Source: a phage. Taken from it: 64,000 nucleotides of DNA. The notes below the pieces were generated by a model. It saw only the letters and a program-made list of their open reading frames with translations. It did no database searches and was not told the origin of the DNA. Below are positions 8,533-58,625 of this stretch, piece by piece. Made by a program: the position numbers and the translations under genes. Each line of letters opens with the position of its first letter. Position 1 is the first letter of the stretch. The stretch lies in assembly GCA_025823825.1 (NCBI GenBank), contig GCA_025823825.1_4720.1. One strand, given 5' to 3'.

Positions 8533-9189
8533 TTAGCTTGCAGCTTCTTCATTTGTATCAGGTTTGCTTCCCCCTAACAAACCGTCAAACAGACCCGTAT
8601 GTTTCAGGTAGAAGAGAGCGATAGCACCCATTGCCGCTGCGCTCGTCGCCGTTAACGCAACCCCAGCACGATACTGCCATTTACGGTCAGGCTTTTGATC
8701 AAGCGCCATACGACGCATGTATTCAGCCTCTGCTTCATTCCGATGAATTTCGGATTCAGCCAAGCGGGCTAAGGTATCGCGGTCAAGGTTATCATAACGT
8801 ACGTTCATGGTGGTTTCCTCTTGTTTGGAAGTTGATTGCTTAGTGGATTCTTGGTCAACAGTCGTTTCAGATGGTTCAAACGGCTGGTTGTTCATTTTCT
8901 TATCTTTATCGGACATGATGGACTCCTTCGATTTTTGAGATGAAATTGATTTAAACCATCGTGGATGGCGGTATTCTGTTTTACATGTACAGTTAAGTTT
9001 CTCGTGCAGGAAAGCGTAAAAACGTTTTGCGCCTACACGTAAGGCTTTCAGCATTACCCATCCACGAGCACTCAAACGGTGTAGCTGTTGCGGTATGTCT
9101 AGTTTCCTAGCCAAGCGAAAGTATCTTTCAATCACTTCGATAGGAAACCATTGTTGTTCCACATCGGTGAGACTGAAAGTCTTATCCAT
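8533..9189 (-). CDS. C-terminally membrane-anchored protein (218 aa)
   Basis: Track ORF; C-terminal hydrophobic segment GVALTATSAAAMGAIALFYL. An in-frame internal ATG at 8916 has a strong AAGGAG upstream and could be the real start (127 aa). Confidence 0.5.
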   Translation of the reverse strand: MDKTFSLTDVEQQWFPIEVIERYFRLARKLDIPQQLHRLSARGWVMLKALRVGAKRFYAFLHEKLNCTCKTEYRHPRWFKSISSQKSKESIMSDKDKKMNNQPFEPSETTVDQESTKQSTSKQEETTMNVRYDNLDRDTLARLAESEIHRNEAEAEYMRRMALDQKPDRKWQYRAGVALTATSAAAMGAIALFYLKHTGLFDGLLGGSKPDTNEEAAS

Positions 9190-9212: not shown

Positions 9213-9237
9213 TCACCTAAGTAATATAGCCGTGAAA
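9213..9237 (-). promoter_or_regulatory. promoter-like motif, copy 1 (TATATTAC core)
   Basis: Minus-strand reading TTTCACGGCTATATTACTTAGGTGA, about 25 nt upstream of the ATG at 9189; near-identical to the copies at 21.76 kb and 58.6 kb. Confidence 0.55.
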
Positions 9238-21664: not shown

Positions 21665-21754
21665 TTAAAAGATCCTCTGTTTTTCACGTTAATTAAACAA
21701 CGTATTGATTTCTATTCGATAGCAATACGAACATCGTACGTATGCATCATGAAG

Positions 21755-21771
21755 GTAATATAGCCGTGAAA
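21755..21771 (-). promoter_or_regulatory. promoter-like motif, copy 2 (TATATTAC core)
   Basis: Minus-strand reading TTTCACGGCTATATTACCTTCATGA; identical 17-nt core to copy 1. Confidence 0.55.
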
Positions 21772-43911: not shown

Positions 43912-46470
43912 TTACTGCTCTTCACGTTCCAGCAGATACTCGGAAGCGGTAATACCGTTTACCGTACGTACTGCTTTCAGACGAGTATCATCGCTCAGAA
44001 TTACAGTAACAGATTGCAGACCTTTTACTTTGGTTTCGAAGGTCTTGAACACCTGATCCAGCATACGAGCAATGCTTGGGTTGGTTGCAGCCGATGCGTG
44101 AGTGTAACCGCTCTGATTCAGCTTCAGAATCTTGGCGTTGGTCGGTACGCGAACAACAACATGTGGGCGCATCGCGAATACGCTGTGATTGAACCAGTAA
44201 GCGTCGTTACTATCTTCGTCGGTAACGATGTCTGGATTAACACGCATATCCTCGACAGCCGCATCCGCCAAACGACGTTCGATTTCATCGGCGTCCAGAG
44301 AGCCATCTTTCTCCAGTTCTGCACGATACTCACTCATGGCAACCAGATGACGTTCACGATTCGCTGCAGATTTTTCGTGAGCGGCTTTCAGGTAGTCATG
44401 CATGTTGTACAGTTCAGCCATGGAAAGACGAATGTTCCACTGACCTTCGCCATCACGATTGCAGTAGAGACACTTCAGCATGTTGACCCAGGTGTAGTAG
44501 CAATTGGCGAATTCATCTTCAATGAACTTCTGGTCCATTTTAAGATCGTGAATCAGCCAACCGGACAGTTCTCCGATATCATCAACGAAGCTAGAGATGG
44601 TGGTTTCAGAGAAGTTCTTCGGTACGATACGTTTGATCAGCTTATTGACGTCTTTGGTCATGCTATCGTTCAGGAAATGCCAGATACGCAGAGGAATGAC
44701 ATCTCGATACTGTTGCATGATCTGACGATAAGCTTTGATATCGTCGCTACGACCTTTATCAATAGACAACGCATCCAGGAATTCATGGATTGCATCCAGC
44801 TCTTTGTCGGTATAGGTTCCCAGATAGGAATTGACGGTGGCCAGGAATGCTAATGCGTCGTTTTGGTTGACGTCGGTGTTGGTCTGCTGAATGATCGCCA
44901 CTGCAGCTTTAGTTTCAGCATCCTCAACGCTTGACGCTGCGATCGCGTCGGTGACGGTAAACAGTTTCATTTCGCGCTGTTCACCGACAACGATTGGCTC
45001 ACGCTGAACCGGCTTGTTAAGACTAACGCGAACAACTTCTGCTTGCGCGATACGATCCAGTTTTGCCATTTCCTGCTCTGCCATACGACGAGCGGTTGGA
45101 TCTGATTCAAGTTCGATGTATTCCACTTCTTCCTCCGTGAGGGATGTAATGTCAACAATGGTTTCATGAAGAATTCCGTTTTCGTCGATACGTGCCCGAC
45201 GAGCGAAGTGCCTGAAGTCATACAACGTCGGCCAACGACAATTAGGCGCATAGTCTTTGGCTTTCAGACGCATCTGCATAAATTCATCATGTTGAACAAC
45301 ACGACCGTAACGCTTAGCATCTTCGGTCGCATCAATTGGATTAACGGTCTTTGTTGCCGTAGCGGAACGAGCCGTACGAACCGGTTCCGGTTTCACCTGT
45401 GCCGGTTCAGGTTGAACGGGTTTCTGCTGTCCAGCCTTAACATGCCATTCTGGCTCTTCGTACTGTTCAGCAAATTGCTCAGCCGCTGCAAAGATATCGT
45501 TGATACCACCAATATCTCCTTCAGGATTTGTCGAGTAAATCCGTGGTTGCGGTGCCTCGTAACGCGGCGCTGTAGCAGCAGGTGCCTCATCAACGTTATG
45601 ATCGTCATCACCAACATCATACAAACGGTTGAACGCACAATCCTTCGAATCAATGTACGATGGTGTTTGTGGTTGGACAACCGTAGGCCGAGGTTGTGCG
45701 CCGTATCCTGGTGTTGTTGGAGCCATACCACGCATAACTGCCGGGTTAGGTTGGTATTGTGGTTGCGGGTAGGTTCCACCATACGTGGCGTACGCAGGCT
45801 GTTGCGGTTGACCGTATCCACCACCAACCATCGCACTTGCTTGCGGCCCACGATAAGTCATCCCCATCTGCATCACCTGCTGCTTCAAACCGCGTGACTT
45901 CTGAGCGATTTGCGCTAGGCTTCCGCTTTTATTCAGCTGCGTGTACTTATTCGCGGCTTCCGGGTTAATGCGTGATAATTCGATCGCGCGATAATATTCC
46001 GGGTACTGATTAGGTTCAAAGAGCCACGTTACAAGATGATACAGCGCAACTGTGCTCACAGCAGCAGAGACGATCTGGTCGTCGGACGCGTTCTGTGGCA
46101 TCGGGTTGATGTAAGAGAACACGTTCCAACAACAGTCTTCAACAAGCGATTCCATCATCATATCGTTATTGGTATAACGTGCGACGAACTCGGTTTGTAT
46201 TTTGTCTTGCTGAGCGAAGTCTTTCAGGACATTAAAGATGGCTTGACGGATTTTGACGATCGTCGCTTCTTGGGTGATGAAGTTATAGTTCTGCTGATAT
46301 GAGGGTTGTTGGTATTGTGGTGGTTGATAGGCGTTATTCGGGTATGCGCCGTACGGCGATTGCTGATACTGTTGCTGACGAACCTGTTCAGCCGCATGAT
46401 TAATCGTGCTCGTATAAGGGTTTTCGCTATAGCCCATTTGCTGATACATGTTGTTACTGCCATTATACAT
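43912..46470 (-). CDS. protein with Gln/Tyr/Pro-rich low-complexity regions (852 aa)
   Basis: AAGGA Shine-Dalgarno; N-terminus QQYQQSPYGAYPNNAYQPPQYQQPSYQQNY and a second stretch GGGYGQPQQPAYATYGGTYPQPQYQPNPAVMRGMAPTTPGYGAQPRPTVVQPQTPSY. Confidence 0.65.
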   Translation of the reverse strand: MYNGSNNMYQQMGYSENPYTSTINHAAEQVRQQQYQQSPYGAYPNNAYQPPQYQQPSYQQNYNFITQEATIVKIRQAIFNVLKDFAQQDKIQTEFVARYTNNDMMMESLVEDCCWNVFSYINPMPQNASDDQIVSAAVSTVALYHLVTWLFEPNQYPEYYRAIELSRINPEAANKYTQLNKSGSLAQIAQKSRGLKQQVMQMGMTYRGPQASAMVGGGYGQPQQPAYATYGGTYPQPQYQPNPAVMRGMAPTTPGYGAQPRPTVVQPQTPSYIDSKDCAFNRLYDVGDDDHNVDEAPAATAPRYEAPQPRIYSTNPEGDIGGINDIFAAAEQFAEQYEEPEWHVKAGQQKPVQPEPAQVKPEPVRTARSATATKTVNPIDATEDAKRYGRVVQHDEFMQMRLKAKDYAPNCRWPTLYDFRHFARRARIDENGILHETIVDITSLTEEEVEYIELESDPTARRMAEQEMAKLDRIAQAEVVRVSLNKPVQREPIVVGEQREMKLFTVTDAIAASSVEDAETKAAVAIIQQTNTDVNQNDALAFLATVNSYLGTYTDKELDAIHEFLDALSIDKGRSDDIKAYRQIMQQYRDVIPLRIWHFLNDSMTKDVNKLIKRIVPKNFSETTISSFVDDIGELSGWLIHDLKMDQKFIEDEFANCYYTWVNMLKCLYCNRDGEGQWNIRLSMAELYNMHDYLKAAHEKSAANRERHLVAMSEYRAELEKDGSLDADEIERRLADAAVEDMRVNPDIVTDEDSNDAYWFNHSVFAMRPHVVVRVPTNAKILKLNQSGYTHASAATNPSIARMLDQVFKTFETKVKGLQSVTVILSDDTRLKAVRTVNGITASEYLLEREEQ

Positions 46471-46504: not shown

Positions 46505-48301
46505 TCAATCGATTATGTCACGATCGTTAATTTCTACAATTTCTTCATCGAATCGACCGACGTCTTTCTTCAATCCTGCATTGGTTGCTGCAACGTCATT
46601 TGCAATTTGTGGGGTAATGATTAACCGACCACGTTCGTCGATAGGTGCGTACATACTGAACTTCTGACGTCCGGTTGGTTCGGAGTGTGGAAGATTCAGA
46701 TAGCTTGCACAGAACGGGATGGAACCACTAACCAAACGACTCTCGTCAGCCAATGCAGCACCGCCTGCGTTTTGGCTCTGGAGAACAACATGCGTGCTCA
46801 CTTTGAACAGCATGCAATCACCAGGTGACTGAATCGATGTTGCCACTTTCTCACGTTTATCACGATTGCTCTGGATATTGAGAATCGCTTCCGTTGCAAC
46901 TTGATTTCGCAACGCCTTCTGTACATCGCGATTGGTCATCTCTTTACGGTTGTTCTGTCGTTTACCACGTTCTGTGGTTTTAAGATGGAACCCCAGTTTA
47001 AAGATGCTCTTACGCACATCCTCCATGACATATTCCAACACCATCAATTCCTTACCGAACATCGTCGTGGTATCAACACGACTCATTTCGATAGTGACAT
47101 TGTCAATCAGATACGCCATAAATTCGTAGAAGTCGTCGCAAGGAATATTTTCCTGTTTGAACTTCTTCTGCTGAATCTCGTCAACGTAAAGATCGAGACT
47201 GTCGATGTGGTGGTTTACATCACGCAACAAACGTGCATCCGCGTTGTTGTTATTAAAGATAATCAAACCGAGTAATGTACGCCAATGGTCTGGCGCATTC
47301 GCGAACTCCTCAACCGGATAGTCTTCCGGAAAACGATCGTAATAACGGTCGATGAGATACAAGAATGCACCGACAAGGCCAAGAACAATACGTTCCGTGC
47401 CTCCACGTCTTACAGCAATTTGAATATCAGGATGTTTGTAACGTACAGCGCTAGCGCTACGGCTTTTACCGCTTTTGCTGATACTAAAACCTTTAGGAAT
47501 AACCCCCATGGTGCGATAGATTACCCATTGGTCACGCGGAAAATCACGTTCAGCAAGGTTCCGTCCGGTTACGGCTTCGACACCTGCAAAACGTCGGAAA
47601 CACTCACCCACACCGTACTTCGCAAAGAGATAGTGACCCAGTGTGGTTACGCTGGTGTGGTTGATGTTGTCACCGTTCACTTTACTTTGTTTGGTAAGAT
47701 GATAGATTTGTGACCAGGGTAATGACAGGTAATGACGATAATCGATACCGGTCGGTGTATCATTGCTCAGGAACTGATACGGCGTACGTTTAACCGTGAT
47801 TTTATCACGCGGAAGCATGATGAACGCCATGTCTTTCGTGTAACTGATTACGGGGTCAGCGAGTACCGCACTGAGAATGAAGTTCGCACCACGTAGACGC
47901 ATTTTACCACCCTGACCTACCGCGGGTAATAGGAGAGGATGTCGGATAATGCAGTAGTCCTTTCCTGGTTCACGACGGTCACCTGATTCCATCGCGCCGT
48001 ACCAGCGGAATTCCAGCATCACCATAAACACATCGGAAGGCGCAAGGTCGAAGGTCAGCTTACCGCTATCCTTCCCTTTGGTTTTCTTTCCTCCGCTTAA
48101 GTAGTGGAACTGTTCGCGGGCCATACAACGACGCAGGCCATGATACACCAGATCCTTAGGTAAACTATCTTTGCTGTTCCGCCAAAGACGATCAACATAG
48201 GACTCAACATCTTGCATCTTATCGACGACGATGTTGCGTGCTATCTTCTCGTTCATCTTCGGTGCAAGCTCAGCGACAGCTTTGCAGAATCTAGGATCCA
48301 T
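46505..48301 (-). CDS. hypothetical protein (598 aa)
   Basis: Track ORF starts at GTG 48304; the ATG at 48301 has AAGGAG 6 nt upstream. Confidence 0.6.
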   Translation of the reverse strand: MDPRFCKAVAELAPKMNEKIARNIVVDKMQDVESYVDRLWRNSKDSLPKDLVYHGLRRCMAREQFHYLSGGKKTKGKDSGKLTFDLAPSDVFMVMLEFRWYGAMESGDRREPGKDYCIIRHPLLLPAVGQGGKMRLRGANFILSAVLADPVISYTKDMAFIMLPRDKITVKRTPYQFLSNDTPTGIDYRHYLSLPWSQIYHLTKQSKVNGDNINHTSVTTLGHYLFAKYGVGECFRRFAGVEAVTGRNLAERDFPRDQWVIYRTMGVIPKGFSISKSGKSRSASAVRYKHPDIQIAVRRGGTERIVLGLVGAFLYLIDRYYDRFPEDYPVEEFANAPDHWRTLLGLIIFNNNNADARLLRDVNHHIDSLDLYVDEIQQKKFKQENIPCDDFYEFMAYLIDNVTIEMSRVDTTTMFGKELMVLEYVMEDVRKSIFKLGFHLKTTERGKRQNNRKEMTNRDVQKALRNQVATEAILNIQSNRDKREKVATSIQSPGDCMLFKVSTHVVLQSQNAGGAALADESRLVSGSIPFCASYLNLPHSEPTGRQKFSMYAPIDERGRLIITPQIANDVAATNAGLKKDVGRFDEEIVEINDRDIID

Positions 48302-48340
48302 CACACACTCCTTTCAGAAAGTTGCTTAAGCAGATTAAAG

Positions 48341-49777
48341 TTACTTTTTCGATGACGCCTTCTCAAGAATCTTGAAAAAGGTCATACCTATACCGACAAC
48401 AGCCGCGGTTATGCTTGCAGCGGCTTTCCAAACATCGACGTTACGTTGACGTCGCGCTTCTTCCGCTTCACGTTGTCTTTTTGCCTCTTCATCACGTCGA
48501 CGTATCTCAGCAGCAAACTCGTCGTGCTTACGTTTGGATTCTTCGTCTCGACGACGAAGTTCAGCGACGAATTCTTCATGTTTGCGTTTAGCCTCGTCAT
48601 CACGACGTTTTAAATCAGCTTGATAATCTTCATGTATTTGTCTACGTAGATCATCTTGACGTTTCATTTCGGCTTGGTGTTGTTCCATCCTACGTTTTTG
48701 TTCGTCTTTAAGCTGATCGAGTTCGGCTTTATGTTGTTCATCACGCAGCTTTGCATCAGCGCGATGCGCCTCATGCATCTGTGCGATAACTGCCTTGTGT
48801 TCATCCGCCATACGTCGCATTTCAGCCATCACCCCTTTAAGGGTTTCTTCTGATGCCTTACGTTCGTAGCTACGCTGGTCGAAATCATTTTTGTAGGCTT
48901 CTTTTTGGATGGGGTCGCGCCAATGCAATGCCGACTCACGTGTCGGAAAAACATTGTACTTCCACATCTCTTTTTCCAAATCTTCGACCGGTACGAAGAT
49001 GGAGTCATTATTCCCGAAGGTAACCAACATACCTGGCGCGCCTGCTCCATTCGTTGGTTTTATTTCGAACGCTTTCCCCAACACGTTAACCCATAAGCTA
49101 TACGGATTATGAAAGTCGGGCGGCGTCCAATGGATAGTGAGTTGTGTTCCGAGAATCCGGAAACCCTCTGTTTTTCCCGTCAAGCTCCGCGCGCACGTTG
49201 CGATGTAGGGGTGATCAATCCCTTTCGTAACGTGGTCTGCGCTTTTGTATTCTCCTTTAACTTTTACGATTGCCACGTTGATTTGCGCGACATAAGCAGG
49301 TTGATTAAAGTTCAACGTGTTGAGGTCAATTTGACATATTTCATCCAGCGTATCGTACCAGTCTTGCTGGTCTAATAGACGCGGCATTTTCTCTGTGTTA
49401 ACAATACGACGGATATGCGGTTTCCTTATCGCATAACCTGTGCCGTTTTTAACACGGAGTATATCCCGACGTCTACCCGCGTAGACGAAGTTTCTGAATG
49501 CACCATTCGCATTAGATACGTCATGGCTGTCAACTATTACAGGACTACGAAATTTTGAACGTCGTACGATCCTGAATGTATTGCCGTCCTCAACCCTACC
49601 AGGAATGTACTGGAACATATTGTCGGAGGTGATAACCAACACGGTATGGCCAGATTCGTTAATACATGCCCATCCTAATTCCAGGTCATATAACGGTTCA
49701 GCATAACCGTCAATGCGATAAGCGTGCGTACCATCCCACGGTTCGAACGCGGTATCACATATTGGCATGGAGGGCAT
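48341..49777 (-). CDS. tail-anchored protein with long Glu/Arg/Lys-rich helix (478 aa)
   Basis: ATG at 49777 with GGAGG 6 nt upstream; about 120 aa of ...RRDEEAKRKHEEFVAELRRRDEESKRKHDEF...; then a C-terminal hydrophobic segment AAASITAAVVGIGMTFF. Confidence 0.6.
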   Translation of the reverse strand: MPSMPICDTAFEPWDGTHAYRIDGYAEPLYDLELGWACINESGHTVLVITSDNMFQYIPGRVEDGNTFRIVRRSKFRSPVIVDSHDVSNANGAFRNFVYAGRRRDILRVKNGTGYAIRKPHIRRIVNTEKMPRLLDQQDWYDTLDEICQIDLNTLNFNQPAYVAQINVAIVKVKGEYKSADHVTKGIDHPYIATCARSLTGKTEGFRILGTQLTIHWTPPDFHNPYSLWVNVLGKAFEIKPTNGAGAPGMLVTFGNNDSIFVPVEDLEKEMWKYNVFPTRESALHWRDPIQKEAYKNDFDQRSYERKASEETLKGVMAEMRRMADEHKAVIAQMHEAHRADAKLRDEQHKAELDQLKDEQKRRMEQHQAEMKRQDDLRRQIHEDYQADLKRRDDEAKRKHEEFVAELRRRDEESKRKHDEFAAEIRRRDEEAKRQREAEEARRQRNVDVWKAAASITAAVVGIGMTFFKILEKASSKK

Positions 49778-49927
49778 CGTCAACCTCCATCAGATTGAAA
49801 ACTATCACGCATAATACATTTCCCTTTTTCTTGTTCTTATCAAGCCGACAGCCGACGGTTTCAGCATCGTTCCTAGCGCGAGAACGACCTTACGTGTTGT
49901 CTATGCCTTATTCATCGCAGGCGTCTG

Positions 49928-49952
49928 TCACCTAGGTAATGTAAGCGTCAAA
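49928..49952 (-). promoter_or_regulatory. degenerate copy of the promoter-like motif
   Basis: Minus-strand reading TTTGACGCTTACATTACCTAGGTGA matches the consensus at 19 of 25 positions, about 150 nt upstream of the start of 48341..49777. Confidence 0.35.
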
Positions 49953-49986
49953 TTTTTTCTATTCGCAACGATAAACGGCATAGAAA

Positions 49987-50016
49987 CCTCCCCCAACCCT
50001 TACGGGCTGAGGGAGG
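49987..50016. terminator. conserved CCTCC/GGAGG hairpin element (family member 7)
   Basis: CCTCCCCC-AACCC-TTACGGGCTGA-GGGAGG, downstream of the 740-aa gene; on the minus strand it is followed by TTTCTATGCCGTTTATCG. Confidence 0.55.
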
Positions 50017-50115
50017 CTGACTTATGTATCACGGTGCCGGATGAATGTCCGGTGCAATGAAACCATCCGCAACGTTGTCGTCAAGAATATCATCCAACGA
50101 AGCAGCTACGGTAGT

Positions 50116-52338
50116 TCAGTTAGTCTGAACCGGCAGCTTGATGTTTTCGGTGTAGACCTTACGCAGGTTCACAACGTTAATCAGACCCAGCAGCGGGCAG
50201 TTGTTAACGAAGCGGCAGCGCGGCTGAACCATGGTTTCTTTAGAAACCTGACCGTTACGGGTAACCTGAGCAACAGATACCAGTTCCGGTACATACAGGA
50301 ACATACCGAAGGTCAGCGGATCCGGAGAACCCTGGATACCACGAGACAGGGTCACGAAGATCTTATCGCGCAGCATGACGTTCGGGTTATCTACAACCAC
50401 GAAGTTGAAGCTTACACCAACGGTACGGAAATCGCCATCGGTCTGCAGGAACTGCGGGATGTAGTTGTCAGTTGCTACTACGCAACGCGGTTTCTCATCA
50501 GCGTTGGAAGACAGCAGCTGCAGAGCTGGCTGATAACCAGACTCGGAGTACATGCGGTATGCCATCTCACGAATCACGTTCATGATCGCAGCAGACACTT
50601 CAGCACGACGTTCTGCAGTGGTGGTACCCTGAACAGATTTCTCCAGGTCCAGATTGATTTCTTCGAACCACGGACGGATCAGGTAACGACCGAAACCTTC
50701 GATCTGGATGTCACCGAACTGACGGAAGCGAGAGGTCGCAACCGCTTTCAGTGCGTCTTTGTAGCTGAACAGTTTCTCAACCATCAGGTTGTCGAAACGT
50801 GCGTTAGCAGCTTGGATCAGAACGTCCAGGTCAGCAGCGTTTTCTTCCCAATCCAGCGGACGAGGAATGGAGAACGGAGCCAGCAGGCCGATTGCGTAAC
50901 GTTCTTGCTTCATGTTGAAGTCAAGGTGCTTACCGCGCTCACGACGGTTGCTGTTGTTACGGCGGATACGCAGTTCGTAACCAACCAGTTTGAAGCTCAG
51001 GTCTTCAGCCAGTTGTTTGAACTCTTCGCTCTTACGCGGTTGTTCGATGTTGTCCTGATCAACCAGGCGATACAGTTCAGCGTTAGCGCCGTTAACACGC
51101 AGACCCGCTTTCTCTACGTTGGAAGAACCGTAAACTTCGATCGCCAGCTGAGCAGCGGATTTCGCATCGATGATGTCCTGCAGCGCTTCAGCTTTCGCAC
51201 CTTTAACGTCTTTGGTGTTCTCATCAACGAAGATGGAGTGGGTGTCGAACGCCAGGGTCATTTTGCGGAAGTCGCCTTCCAGGGATTTCTGGAAACCGTT
51301 GGTGATCAGACCAGATACGTCGAACGGTACGTAAGAGGTTTTGCTGTGCTTGGTAGATTTGATTTCTACCAGGATTTTGGTCAGCGTGATCTGGGCGTCC
51401 AGCGCGTCGGTGTTGTCGCTGTAACCGTTAGCCAGAATGCTGTCGTCTTCAGCGATACCGATCATGTCGATCAGTTTATCAACAGCCAGGTAAGACGTTT
51501 TATAAGTTACGCCTTTAATTTCGATGTCGCGCGGAGCAACGATCGTTTTATCAACGAAGTACTGCGCGTTGGCATCGTCAGCACGATAGATCGGATGCAG
51601 ATCGGTCACGTCGTTGGACAGAACGTCGTTGTACATGAACGCATCCAGCAGCGGACGACGTACCCAATCAGCCGGAGTACCGTCAGCGTTACGACGCAGG
51701 TGGTTGAACACCAGCGGGCGACGGAAAGATACGTCGTAACCGATCTGGTTCGGAGCCAGAACGATGGTGTTATACAGTTCGTTACCCATGCGGCTCAGAC
51801 GAGAAGCCTTCACGTTGAACACAACGGAGTACGGCATCATGTCACGCAGTTCTTTCTGGTCGTAGGACAGCTGAACCAGTTCTTCAGATTCGCAACCGCA
51901 GGAATCAGCAGCCATCATGACGAAGTTAGAGCTGTCAACTTCACGACCTGACGGAGTGGTGCTGATGTTCATGGAACGTGCTTGTTTAGCATATTCTACC
52001 GGGTTACCATGAGCCAGCATGATCAGTGCTGCTGCACGAGCCTGCTGTGCGTTCATGGTGAACAGCTGTTCTTCAATACGCTGCTTCTCTTCCGGAGTGG
52101 TGGTTTCGAAGCCCAGCATGGACAGAACCGGTTCTTCGGCTTTACGGATGTCGCTGCTGAAGCTCTTAACATCCATTTCGTTAACCAGTTTGTCCATGGA
52201 TTTGAAATCAACCTTAGAAGCAGATTCCATAGACAGGAAGGTGTTCTCCAGACCTTTGTCTGCTGGTTTGCTACCATTAGCGGTCAGGAACTGGCGAGTG
52301 GCCGCGACCTGTTGGCTAAGAAGGGTTTTATCATTCAT
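50116..52338 (-). CDS. putative major capsid protein (740 aa)
   Basis: The strongest codon optimisation in the window (CTG, CGT, GGT, ACC, GTT, TCT, CCG); AAGGA Shine-Dalgarno; terminator downstream; size is in the range I recall for phiKZ-type major capsid proteins. Assignment is by inference, without a homology search. Confidence 0.5.
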   Translation of the reverse strand: MNDKTLLSQQVAATRQFLTANGSKPADKGLENTFLSMESASKVDFKSMDKLVNEMDVKSFSSDIRKAEEPVLSMLGFETTTPEEKQRIEEQLFTMNAQQARAAALIMLAHGNPVEYAKQARSMNISTTPSGREVDSSNFVMMAADSCGCESEELVQLSYDQKELRDMMPYSVVFNVKASRLSRMGNELYNTIVLAPNQIGYDVSFRRPLVFNHLRRNADGTPADWVRRPLLDAFMYNDVLSNDVTDLHPIYRADDANAQYFVDKTIVAPRDIEIKGVTYKTSYLAVDKLIDMIGIAEDDSILANGYSDNTDALDAQITLTKILVEIKSTKHSKTSYVPFDVSGLITNGFQKSLEGDFRKMTLAFDTHSIFVDENTKDVKGAKAEALQDIIDAKSAAQLAIEVYGSSNVEKAGLRVNGANAELYRLVDQDNIEQPRKSEEFKQLAEDLSFKLVGYELRIRRNNSNRRERGKHLDFNMKQERYAIGLLAPFSIPRPLDWEENAADLDVLIQAANARFDNLMVEKLFSYKDALKAVATSRFRQFGDIQIEGFGRYLIRPWFEEINLDLEKSVQGTTTAERRAEVSAAIMNVIREMAYRMYSESGYQPALQLLSSNADEKPRCVVATDNYIPQFLQTDGDFRTVGVSFNFVVVDNPNVMLRDKIFVTLSRGIQGSPDPLTFGMFLYVPELVSVAQVTRNGQVSKETMVQPRCRFVNNCPLLGLINVVNLRKVYTENIKLPVQTN

Positions 52339-58600: not shown

Positions 58601-58625
58601 TCACCTTAGTAATATAGCCATGAAA
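58601..58625 (-). promoter_or_regulatory. promoter-like motif, copy 3 (TATATTAC core)
   Basis: Minus-strand reading TTTCATGGCTATATTACTAAGGTGA; differs from copy 1 at 2 of 25 positions. Confidence 0.55.

Follow-up and report, generated by a model that had tools for sequence, protein, structure and literature searches.

A putative tail-anchored protein with a long charged helix encoded by core gene cg35 of a Goslar-like jumbo phage

Gene and genomic context

The window analyzed in this study is a stretch of phage DNA of 64,000 nucleotides (nt; contig GCA_025823825.1_4720.1 of the GenBank assembly GCA_025823825.1) that shares 99.1% DNA identity with Escherichia phage vB_EcoM_Goslar, a nucleus-forming jumbo phage of the Chimalliviridae. 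Here we describe one of its genes, located at 48341..49777 on the minus strand and encoding a protein of 478 amino acids (aa) followed by a stop codon. The protein matched Goslar with 99.6% identity over 100% of its length (tblastn), and the coordinates of the open reading frame (ORF) correspond exactly to the RefSeq coding sequence HOV27_gp040, labelled 'hypothetical protein'. The core-gene table places it among the Chimalliviridae core genes as cg35, and Prichard et al. equate Goslar gp040 with phiKZ gp122 and RAY gp001 under the same number, again as 'hypothetical'. The start codon of gp040 is the ATG at 49777, preceded at a distance of 6 nt by a GGAGG ribosome-binding site (49784..49788, minus strand; read from the sequence). 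A TTG two codons 5′ of this ATG was rejected as start, being too near the ribosome-binding site. Upstream lies the PhiKZ-type major capsid gene gp041 (50116-52338; PF25620, E 5e-218) and downstream, starting 36 nt past the gp040 stop codon, gp039 (46505..48304, minus strand), which encodes the beta subunit of the non-virion RNA polymerase (nvRNAP; PHROG 2943 'polymerase', E 7e-120; nvRNAP in Table S4).

Protein architecture

We consider it quite probable that gp040 is built of three parts, namely a head, a charged rod and a C-terminal hydrophobic helix. The N-terminal part (residues 1-288, 48914..49777, minus strand) is a beta-rich globular head, so that its boundary lies near residue 288 instead of the approximately 330 aa that a preliminary description, made from the letters alone, had allotted to the globular domain. 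The structural model of the head has low confidence (mean predicted local distance difference test, pLDDT, of 53) and is too weak to call the fold new. Searches of Pfam, NCBIfam, and PDB gave no match for the protein or its orthologues, head included. A Foldseek search of BFVD with the head model returned 28 matches at E ≤ 1e-3, all of them uncharacterised jumbo-phage proteins of 277-549 aa that belong to the cg35 family (among them B3FJ64 of phage 201phi2-1), with low TM-scores of 0.13-0.30 for a query of this low pLDDT.

The head is followed by a long charged helix (residues 289-446, 48440..48913, minus strand), delimited by AlphaFold2 and charge statistics, which would span about 24 nm if fully helical. 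AlphaFold2 predicted a single uninterrupted helix over residues 289-474, with pLDDT values of 78-88 over approximately 320-410; as a monomer model, it cannot separate a single helix from an oligomer. Residues 289-446 hold no proline and one glycine, together with 42 K/R and 42 D/E (net charge 0, about 53% D/E/K/R), 13 Q, 19 A, and 8 H, while strongly hydrophobic residues make up 16%. The charges are not randomly placed: opposite charges were found 45 times at i+3 and 41 times at i+4, in each case against 22 expected from shuffled sequences (z 6.3 and 5.3, respectively), like charges were depleted at the same spacings (z -5.1 at i+3 and -3.7 at i+4), and like charges were enriched at i+1 and i+7. 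Over the whole Goslar linker the opposite-charge signature reaches a z of about 8. Charge density climbs toward the C-terminus of the helix, from 0.43 to 0.68 in 28-aa windows, and the portion most similar to a single alpha-helix (SAH) comprises residues 341-446. Within the helix, a 54-nt (18-aa) tandem repeat of 2.4 copies (48479..48607, minus strand; Tandem Repeats Finder) encodes KRKHEEFVAELRRRDEE(A/S) units.

No heptad (3.5-residue) hydrophobic periodicity was detected in the helix, the power at this period being at background (0.07-0.16) and equalled by 60% of the shuffles, and a canonical heptad coiled coil was consequently rejected for a helix without this signal. A weak hydrophobic stripe with a period of 3.6-3.67 (p about 0.03) is present in residues 341-446 and stems from the 18-residue unit, in which hydrophobic positions are spaced 7+7+4; because of this stripe, there is room for weak self-association of the Goslar helix. 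The preliminary description had proposed a charged segment of roughly 120 aa with i to i+4 charge alternation, forming either a stable single helix or a coiled-coil spacer. The alternation was borne out by the pair statistics, and the structure model gives one continuous helix rather than a compact fold. The proposed length agrees with the strongly E/R/K-rich portion (about 105-130 aa) while the whole helix is longer (approximately 158-186 aa), and of the two structural options the charge pairs and the AlphaFold2 model favor the single-helix-like one, the heptad coiled coil having been discarded.

Charged single alpha-helices (CSAH, or ER/K motifs) are known from myosin VI, myosin X, and caldesmon. 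By its sequence, the helix of gp040 shows the traits by which such helices are recognized, i.e., high charge, i+3/i+4 pairing and no hydrophobic seam. It resembles them in its net charge of 0, its charged fraction and the scarcity of proline and glycine, as well as in the enrichment of opposite and depletion of like charges at i+3/i+4 and the lack of a heptad seam. It differs in a higher content of H, Q, and A, and in its first 50 residues, which are less charged and more hydrophobic. Taken together, these features strongly support a rod that would be stiff, charge-balanced and SAH-like.

The third part is the segment A452-F468 (AAASITAAVVGIGMTFF; 48374..48424, minus strand), a putative tail anchor delimited by hydropathy and the sole hydrophobic segment of the protein. 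Its Kyte-Doolittle mean is 1.76 over 19 residues and 1.82 over 17 residues, compared with a 17-residue maximum of 0.89 elsewhere in the protein. The segment comprises 17 uncharged residues and ends 10 residues before the C-terminus, which is formed by the basic extension KILEKASSKK (residues 469-478, 48344..48373, minus strand; read from the translation); no signal peptide is present. The single hydrophobic segment close to the C-terminus that the preliminary description had pointed out is thereby confirmed. Small-xxx-small motifs can be read within A452-F468, and a juxtamembrane D-x-W-K motif precedes it, whose D448 and K451 are invariant in the alignment of relatives. The length of the extension after the hydrophobic run is not conserved (0-17 residues across the cg35 family).

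By topology (a single C-terminal hydrophobic segment and no signal peptide), gp040 would belong to the tail-anchored class. Bacterial tail-anchored inner-membrane proteins include ElaB, YqjD, YgaM, DjlC, and Flk. They are similar to gp040 in having one hydrophobic segment at the extreme C-terminus, no other such segment, no signal peptide, and a bulk that is cytoplasmic and partly helical. The phage protein differs in being much larger, in its beta-rich head and its rod of about 24 nm, and in being phage-encoded and early. No relationship to ElaB/YqjD/YgaM (DUF883) was found in Pfam or NCBIfam at E ≤ 0.1 and 0.01, respectively. A spanin or holin was also considered. Such lysis proteins are made late, i-spanins being largely periplasmic with N-terminal or several transmembrane segments and holins being small with several of them; both were rejected, as the sole hydrophobic segment is C-terminal in a protein of 478 aa that belongs to an early transcription class.

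Distribution and conservation of the cg35 family

Besides the proteins named above, the cg35 family includes PhiPA3 gp138 and 201phi2-1 gp202 as well as PHROGs 7727, 7286, and 15024, and no function annotation is assigned to any of its members. An exhaustive phmmer search (1.8 billion representatives) recovered Goslar-like proteins and just two relatives with 31% identity (P0015 and P0016). Both share the head of gp040, carry a shorter version of its charged helix and finish with a hydrophobic segment and basic residues after it, and their genes are located between a PhiKZ-type capsid gene and a polymerase subunit gene. Two word-indexed homologue searches likewise returned only Goslar-like proteins plus two 31%-identical relatives, while SPN3US- and Erwinia-type members emerged from a third one that was seeded with syntenic orthologues. 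It otherwise took synteny and an iterated hidden Markov model (HMM) to recover the wider family, for which 80 viral contigs were fetched by their capsid gene. In 82 of 88 loci the next gene on the downstream side of the capsid gene is a cg35 member, and the order capsid - cg35 - polymerase is identical in Xoo-sp14, PhiPA3, SPN3US, and metagenomic loci. Similarity within the family is uneven: gp040 matched PHROG 7727 weakly (E 4e-5), the three PHROGs cross-match each other via Xoo-sp14_122, SPN3US, and PhiPA3 gp138, the iterated family HMM scores Goslar-type proteins at E about 1e-76, and hhalign, run directly between the small Goslar-clade profile and Xoo-sp14_122 alone, gave a weak result (2% probability). 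On these sequence comparisons, gp040 is assigned to the uncharacterised Chimalliviridae family cg35, and both homology and gene order strongly support the presence of this family in essentially all Chimalliviridae, between the capsid gene and an nvRNAP subunit gene.

The general layout of gp040 recurs in the other cg35 members, which consist of a head, a proline-poor charged linker and a hydrophobic or amphipathic C-terminus. When a tail-anchor-like C-terminus was defined as a stretch of 15 or more uncharged residues no further than 45 residues from the C-terminus, it was present in 44 of 70 unique cg35 members (63%) vs. 3 of 375 other ORFs from the same loci (0.8%). In tail-bearing members the uncharged run has 15-21 residues and lies 0-17 residues from the C-terminus, and a juxtamembrane motif [DE]-x-[WFL]-[WLF]-K is common to the Goslar, Xoo-sp14, and SPN3US types. 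Among four Goslar-like relatives, the 32-residue tail is 100% identical to that of the window protein in three and identical at 31 of 32 positions in the fourth, compared with 90-98% identity for the heads and 73-95% for the helices, which makes the tail the best-conserved of the three parts in this group.

The helix, for its part, varies in length. Goslar-like versions of 460, 478, 489, and 507 aa are found, with indels of 11 and 18 residues placed in the helix N-terminal to the repeat units; these steps correspond to 3 and 5 helical turns, and the helical phase is therefore kept. Across the family, the linker from the conserved tryptophan (W286) to the hydrophobic run measures 24-165 residues (median 89), the longest being those of the Goslar clade (147-165 aa), and it is in this clade only that the single-helix charge signature is very strong (z about 8 vs. 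0-4 elsewhere). The 'ruler' of the preliminary description is too strong a word, because linker length changes both among near-identical phages and across the family; an adjustable spacer or tether of tunable length appears to fit these sequences better than a fixed measure.

Several further observations were made on the family members. In orthologues of the Erwinia phage pEa_SNUABM_8 type (P0022, P0025, and P0026) the linker carries 11-residue tandem repeats (RKDxxxERSxx), which by sequence would represent an independent expansion of the same spacer region as in the Goslar clade. In the Salmonella phages SPFM8 and SPFM20 (P0023 and P0028) the orthologue consists of SPN3US-type sequence blocks in reversed order, which looks like an assembly or annotation artefact in the genome records. 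Between the capsid gene and gp138, the phiKZ clade has a small, basic, low-complexity protein (PhiPA3 gp137; L007, 8288-8821) that is absent in Goslar and is also labelled by ChmA-miniTurboID. Some Goslar-like gp040 homologues (P0004, P0006, and P0012-P0014) are located on contigs of up to 244 kb deposited under Salmonella enterica and E. coli O157 isolates and are therefore taken to belong to near-complete Goslar-like phage genomes inside bacterial isolate assemblies, in agreement with recent reports of lytic phages in bacterial assemblies.

Upstream signals

Two signals separate the capsid gene from gp040. The first is a GC-rich hairpin (49985..50018, minus strand) with a 15-bp stem and a GUAA loop, followed by UUUCUAU, whose predicted RNA fold has an energy of -31.3 kcal/mol (z -4.6; none of 200 shuffles was as stable). 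Its position 3′ of the capsid gene and its sequence make it look like a terminator; owing to its short T-run, it was missed by a simple terminator scan. The second, 159 nt 5′ of the gp040 ATG, is a degenerate copy (20 of 24 positions; 49928..49951, minus strand) of a recurrent promoter-like motif with the 24-nt consensus TTCAyGGCTATATTACyTAGGTGA, so that the degenerate motif placed about 150 nt upstream by the preliminary description is real. Near-perfect intergenic copies lie at 9213-9236, 21747-21770, and 58601-58624, all on the minus strand and 32-91 nt 5′ of gene starts; at ≤ 3 mismatches the window contains 3 matches, where 0 are expected by chance, and ATATTAC is the most enriched 7-mer in its upstream intergenic regions. 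Most likely the motif serves this Goslar-like phage as its early promoter, used by the virion RNA polymerase; its core resembles the early promoter of phiKZ, and TATATTAC may be read as a phiKZ-type early promoter core. No match to a host sigma-70 promoter was found upstream of gp040 in a promoter scan.

Directly downstream of the perfect motif at 9213-9236 lies a gene for a 218-aa orphan without PHROG match (8533-9189, minus strand; start codon uncertain), whose product has a tail-anchor-like C-terminus (AGVALTATSAAAMGAIALFYL, then 23 residues). Out of the 56 genes of the window with at least 100 aa, this is the only one besides gp040 with a comparable C-terminal segment, and from its sequence the product may be a second early membrane protein. 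A 636-aa ORF on the plus strand (50041-51951), antisense to the major capsid gene, was regarded as a shadow ORF and not as a gene.

Expression, fitness, and proximity data from the literature

The Goslar virion table obtained by liquid chromatography-tandem mass spectrometry lists gp036, gp038, gp042, and a trace of gp039. As gp040 is missing from the Goslar sheet of this table, which includes its neighbours, we regard it as a non-virion protein; the 2026 paper on the Goslar virion structure, to which the table belongs, does not mention gp40 either. Transcription data are available from Goslar infections with a knock-down of chimallin (ChmA), which are arrested at the lipid early phage infection (EPI) vesicle. 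In this experiment gp040 changed by log2 +0.85 to +1.09, like gp039 and gp038, while the capsid gene gp041 dropped by log2 about -4 (approximately 16-fold). Because gp040 rises together with gp039 and gp038 while the capsid gene falls, it was placed in the early, nucleus-independent program, a class that fits the hairpin and the promoter-like motif found between the two genes.

For the phiKZ orthologue, no transposon insertions in orf122 were retained after selection (0, fitness-conferring), both antisense oligomers were scored positive, and phage transcription at 30 min was strongly affected by the phiKZ122 knock-down, which the authors name in one sentence with the knock-downs of ChmA, nvRNAP subunits, PicA, phiKZ124, and phiKZ151. 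The accession (YP_009217217.1), the mass of 39.3 kDa and the numbering of the neighbouring genes confirm the identity of the PhiPA3 orthologue, gp138. ChmA-miniTurboID labelled this protein, pull-downs with ChmA-GFP and with ChmB-GFP both recovered it, and its role was left unassigned by the authors. According to the authors of the EPI-vesicle work, it is not known how the genome gets from the vesicle into the nucleus.

Full-text literature searches on Goslar gp40, phiKZ gp122, and EPI vesicle combined with transmembrane yielded no functional study of the cg35 family, and in the EPI-vesicle literature searched no phage-encoded membrane protein was described for the vesicle stage. Two publications that mention a gp122 were set aside, since the name refers there to a different PhiPA3 gene (PMC11849849) and a different SPN3US gene (PMC5694885), not to phiKZ gp122. 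The gp040 gene and its cg35 membership are already on record, as 'hypothetical'. In the literature searched we did not find the combination of tail anchor and SAH-like rod or its family-wide conservation, nor the coincidence in cg35 of early expression with a fitness effect and proximity to chimallin.

The next gene of the block, a gp038 homologue at 43912-46470 (minus strand), encodes a protein of 852 aa with an N-terminal Q/Y/P-rich low-complexity region of approximately 300 aa. About 25 copies of gp038 are listed in Goslar virions, yet it is transcribed in the early program alongside gp039 and gp040. Its position matches that of phiKZ124, whose knock-down likewise perturbs transcription. 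A Pfam match of gp038 to Cas9_C_2 is under the family threshold and probably spurious.

Discussion

The reading we favor is that gp040 is an early, non-virion, tail-anchored spacer or tether connecting the EPI vesicle with the nuclear shell as it forms, and to this functional statement as a whole we assign a probability of roughly 0.4. The protein would be translated in the cytoplasm, after which its C-terminal helix would insert post-translationally into a lipid bilayer. Candidate bilayers are the inner membrane and, on functional grounds, the inner-membrane-derived EPI vesicle that holds the injected genome. From there the charge-balanced rod would project the head 20-25 nm into the cytoplasm, where it could engage the chimallin shell or a shell-associated factor, and in this way gp040 may connect the lipid vesicle with the forming protein nucleus as infection moves from early to late. 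The small-residue motifs of the anchor may in addition permit oligomerization in the membrane. A more ambitious version, which we think unlikely, sees in the cg35 family the missing phage factor that physically links the EPI vesicle to the nascent chimallin shell: with the C-terminal helix in the vesicle membrane, the length-adjustable rod would bridge the gap, perhaps clearing the ribosome layer around the vesicle, and with the head nucleating or docking chimallin, the genome could be handed from a membrane-bound to a protein-bound organelle. Eukaryotic tail-anchored tethers, such as the golgins giantin and golgin-84 or contact-site tethers, are alike only in the proposed working principle of a C-terminal anchor, a long and rigid helical spacer and a distal head by which another compartment is captured. 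Golgins differ in being dimeric heptad coiled coils of hundreds of nanometres, no homology is found, and tethering by gp040 is our proposal.

Several points weigh against this reading. The putative insertion of the gp040 tail into a membrane is deduced solely from hydropathy. At 17 residues the Ala/Gly-rich segment is short, lysines flank it on either side, and a rough sum on the Hessa scale came out slightly unfavorable (about +2.8 kcal/mol; indicative only). In the phiKZ/PhiPA3/201phi2-1 clade the C-terminal helix is amphipathic instead of hydrophobic, its uncharged residues numbering only 5-10, and it is from this clade that the shell-proximity and fitness data stem. Of the membrane anchoring proposed in the preliminary description, the tail-anchor topology, backed by hydropathy and the conserved architecture, therefore stands more firmly than the insertion itself. 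Furthermore, the phiKZ122 phenotypes could be polar on the adjacent essential nvRNAP gene orf123 (the authors of the transposon study document polarity elsewhere), the gp138 signal in the ChmA-GFP pull-down consists of one peptide, and no binding function can be read from the low-confidence model of the head. Finally, a tail-anchored protein may not tell the EPI vesicle from the bulk inner membrane.

Some of these points are also in keeping with a protein that is bound to the shell rather than to lipid. Its hydrophobic or amphipathic C-terminus would then make protein-protein contacts, either within the chimallin lattice or in a bundled homo-oligomer, and the rest of gp040 would project from the nuclear shell into the cytoplasm, e.g., to PhuZ filaments, ribosomes or mRNA, or capsids. 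The ChmA proximity of the PhiPA3 orthologue and its co-purification with ChmA and ChmB would be expected in this case. So would the amphipathic C-termini with 5-10 uncharged residues in many cg35 members, including the phiKZ clade, the moderate hydrophobicity of the Goslar segment with lysines on both flanks, and its small-xxx-small motifs, which favor helix-helix packing. However, a classic tail-anchor signature in 63% of the family vs. 0.8% of other ORFs argues for a lipid anchor, and the known contacts of the chimallin lattice are made by chimallin's own N- and C-terminal tails. Moreover, gp138 is not among the six PhiPA3 proteins reported to localize clearly to the shell, and we regard such a role as unlikely. 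Synteny makes it tempting to think instead of a membrane-anchored procapsid assembly factor that nucleates proheads at the inner membrane, or holds them there while they assemble, and stays in place once they are released. In 82 of 88 loci the major capsid gene is immediately followed by this gene, portal and vertex-complex genes occur in the same block, the orthologue was recovered with ChmB, a binder of capsids and portal, and absence from mature virions is what one would expect of a chaperone. The introduction of one published paper also reports that Pseudomonas chimallivirus capsids assemble on the membrane. Such a role was dropped as leading hypothesis on the grounds of expression timing, as gp040 is early and nucleus-independent while the capsid gene falls about 16-fold in the same experiment. 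Furthermore, a strong hairpin and a separate promoter-like motif divide the two genes, the phiKZ knock-down disturbs transcription at 30 min, which is unexpected for a late assembly factor, and no similarity to head-assembly families was found in Pfam or PHROGs. T4 head assembly is initiated in association with the membrane, and T4 gp40 is similar to gp040 in being a membrane-associated, non-virion protein encoded among head genes; it differs in showing no PHROGs or Pfam similarity to gp040, which moreover belongs to the early program, unlike the capsid gene. Overall, an assembly factor appears improbable.

The early timing would also suit a membrane-bound host-takeover or ribosome tether, whose head captures ribosomes, mRNA or a host factor at the inner membrane or the EPI vesicle, so that early translation would take place there. 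ElaB, YqjD, and YgaM are tail-anchored ribosome binders of E. coli, and gp040 shares with them a tail-anchored topology with a helical cytosolic part. Polysomes have been seen at EPI vesicles, where localized translation was proposed, and gp040 is expressed early. Yet neither Pfam nor NCBIfam revealed similarity to DUF883/ElaB-type families, and the proximity data of the orthologue indicate ChmA and ChmB, not ribosomes, as its neighbours, which makes this role very improbable. We give slightly less credit still, and the least of all, to an accessory factor of the nvRNAP or of the early-to-late transcription switch, unrelated to membranes and co-expressed with the beta subunit. It would account for the conserved adjacency to the nvRNAP subunit gene, for the identical response of both genes to the ChmA knock-down, and for the naming of phiKZ122 beside nvRNAP subunit knock-downs with strong effects on phage transcription. 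A charged rod of 24 nm and a hydrophobic C-terminus are, however, atypical of polymerase subunits, and since nvRNAP acts inside the nucleus, a tail-anchored or hydrophobic protein would presumably not be imported there. In addition, the phiKZ nvRNAP is described with other subunits (orf55-56.1, 68, 71-73, 74, and 123), and a polar effect on orf123 can explain the transcription phenotype.

Conclusions

Independently of its function, gp040 appears to be a clear natural example of an SAH-like spacer, of approximately 158 aa, that evolves by steps of 11 and 18 residues, and is of interest to those who study or engineer ER/K helices. In nucleus-forming jumbo phages the genome starts out in a lipid vesicle and is passed on to a protein shell, and gp040, as a vesicle-to-shell spacer or tether, is a candidate for that step. 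It is one of approximately 70 core genes of the family, annotated as 'hypothetical' and expressed at the vesicle stage, and its orthologues are fitness-conferring in phiKZ (with the caveat of polar effects) and located near chimallin in PhiPA3. If the more ambitious version of this role, a physical link between vesicle and shell for the hand-over of the genome, is true, the cg35 protein would be the first phage-encoded membrane component of the EPI vesicle stage and the first organelle-to-organelle tether described in the bacterial cytoplasm.

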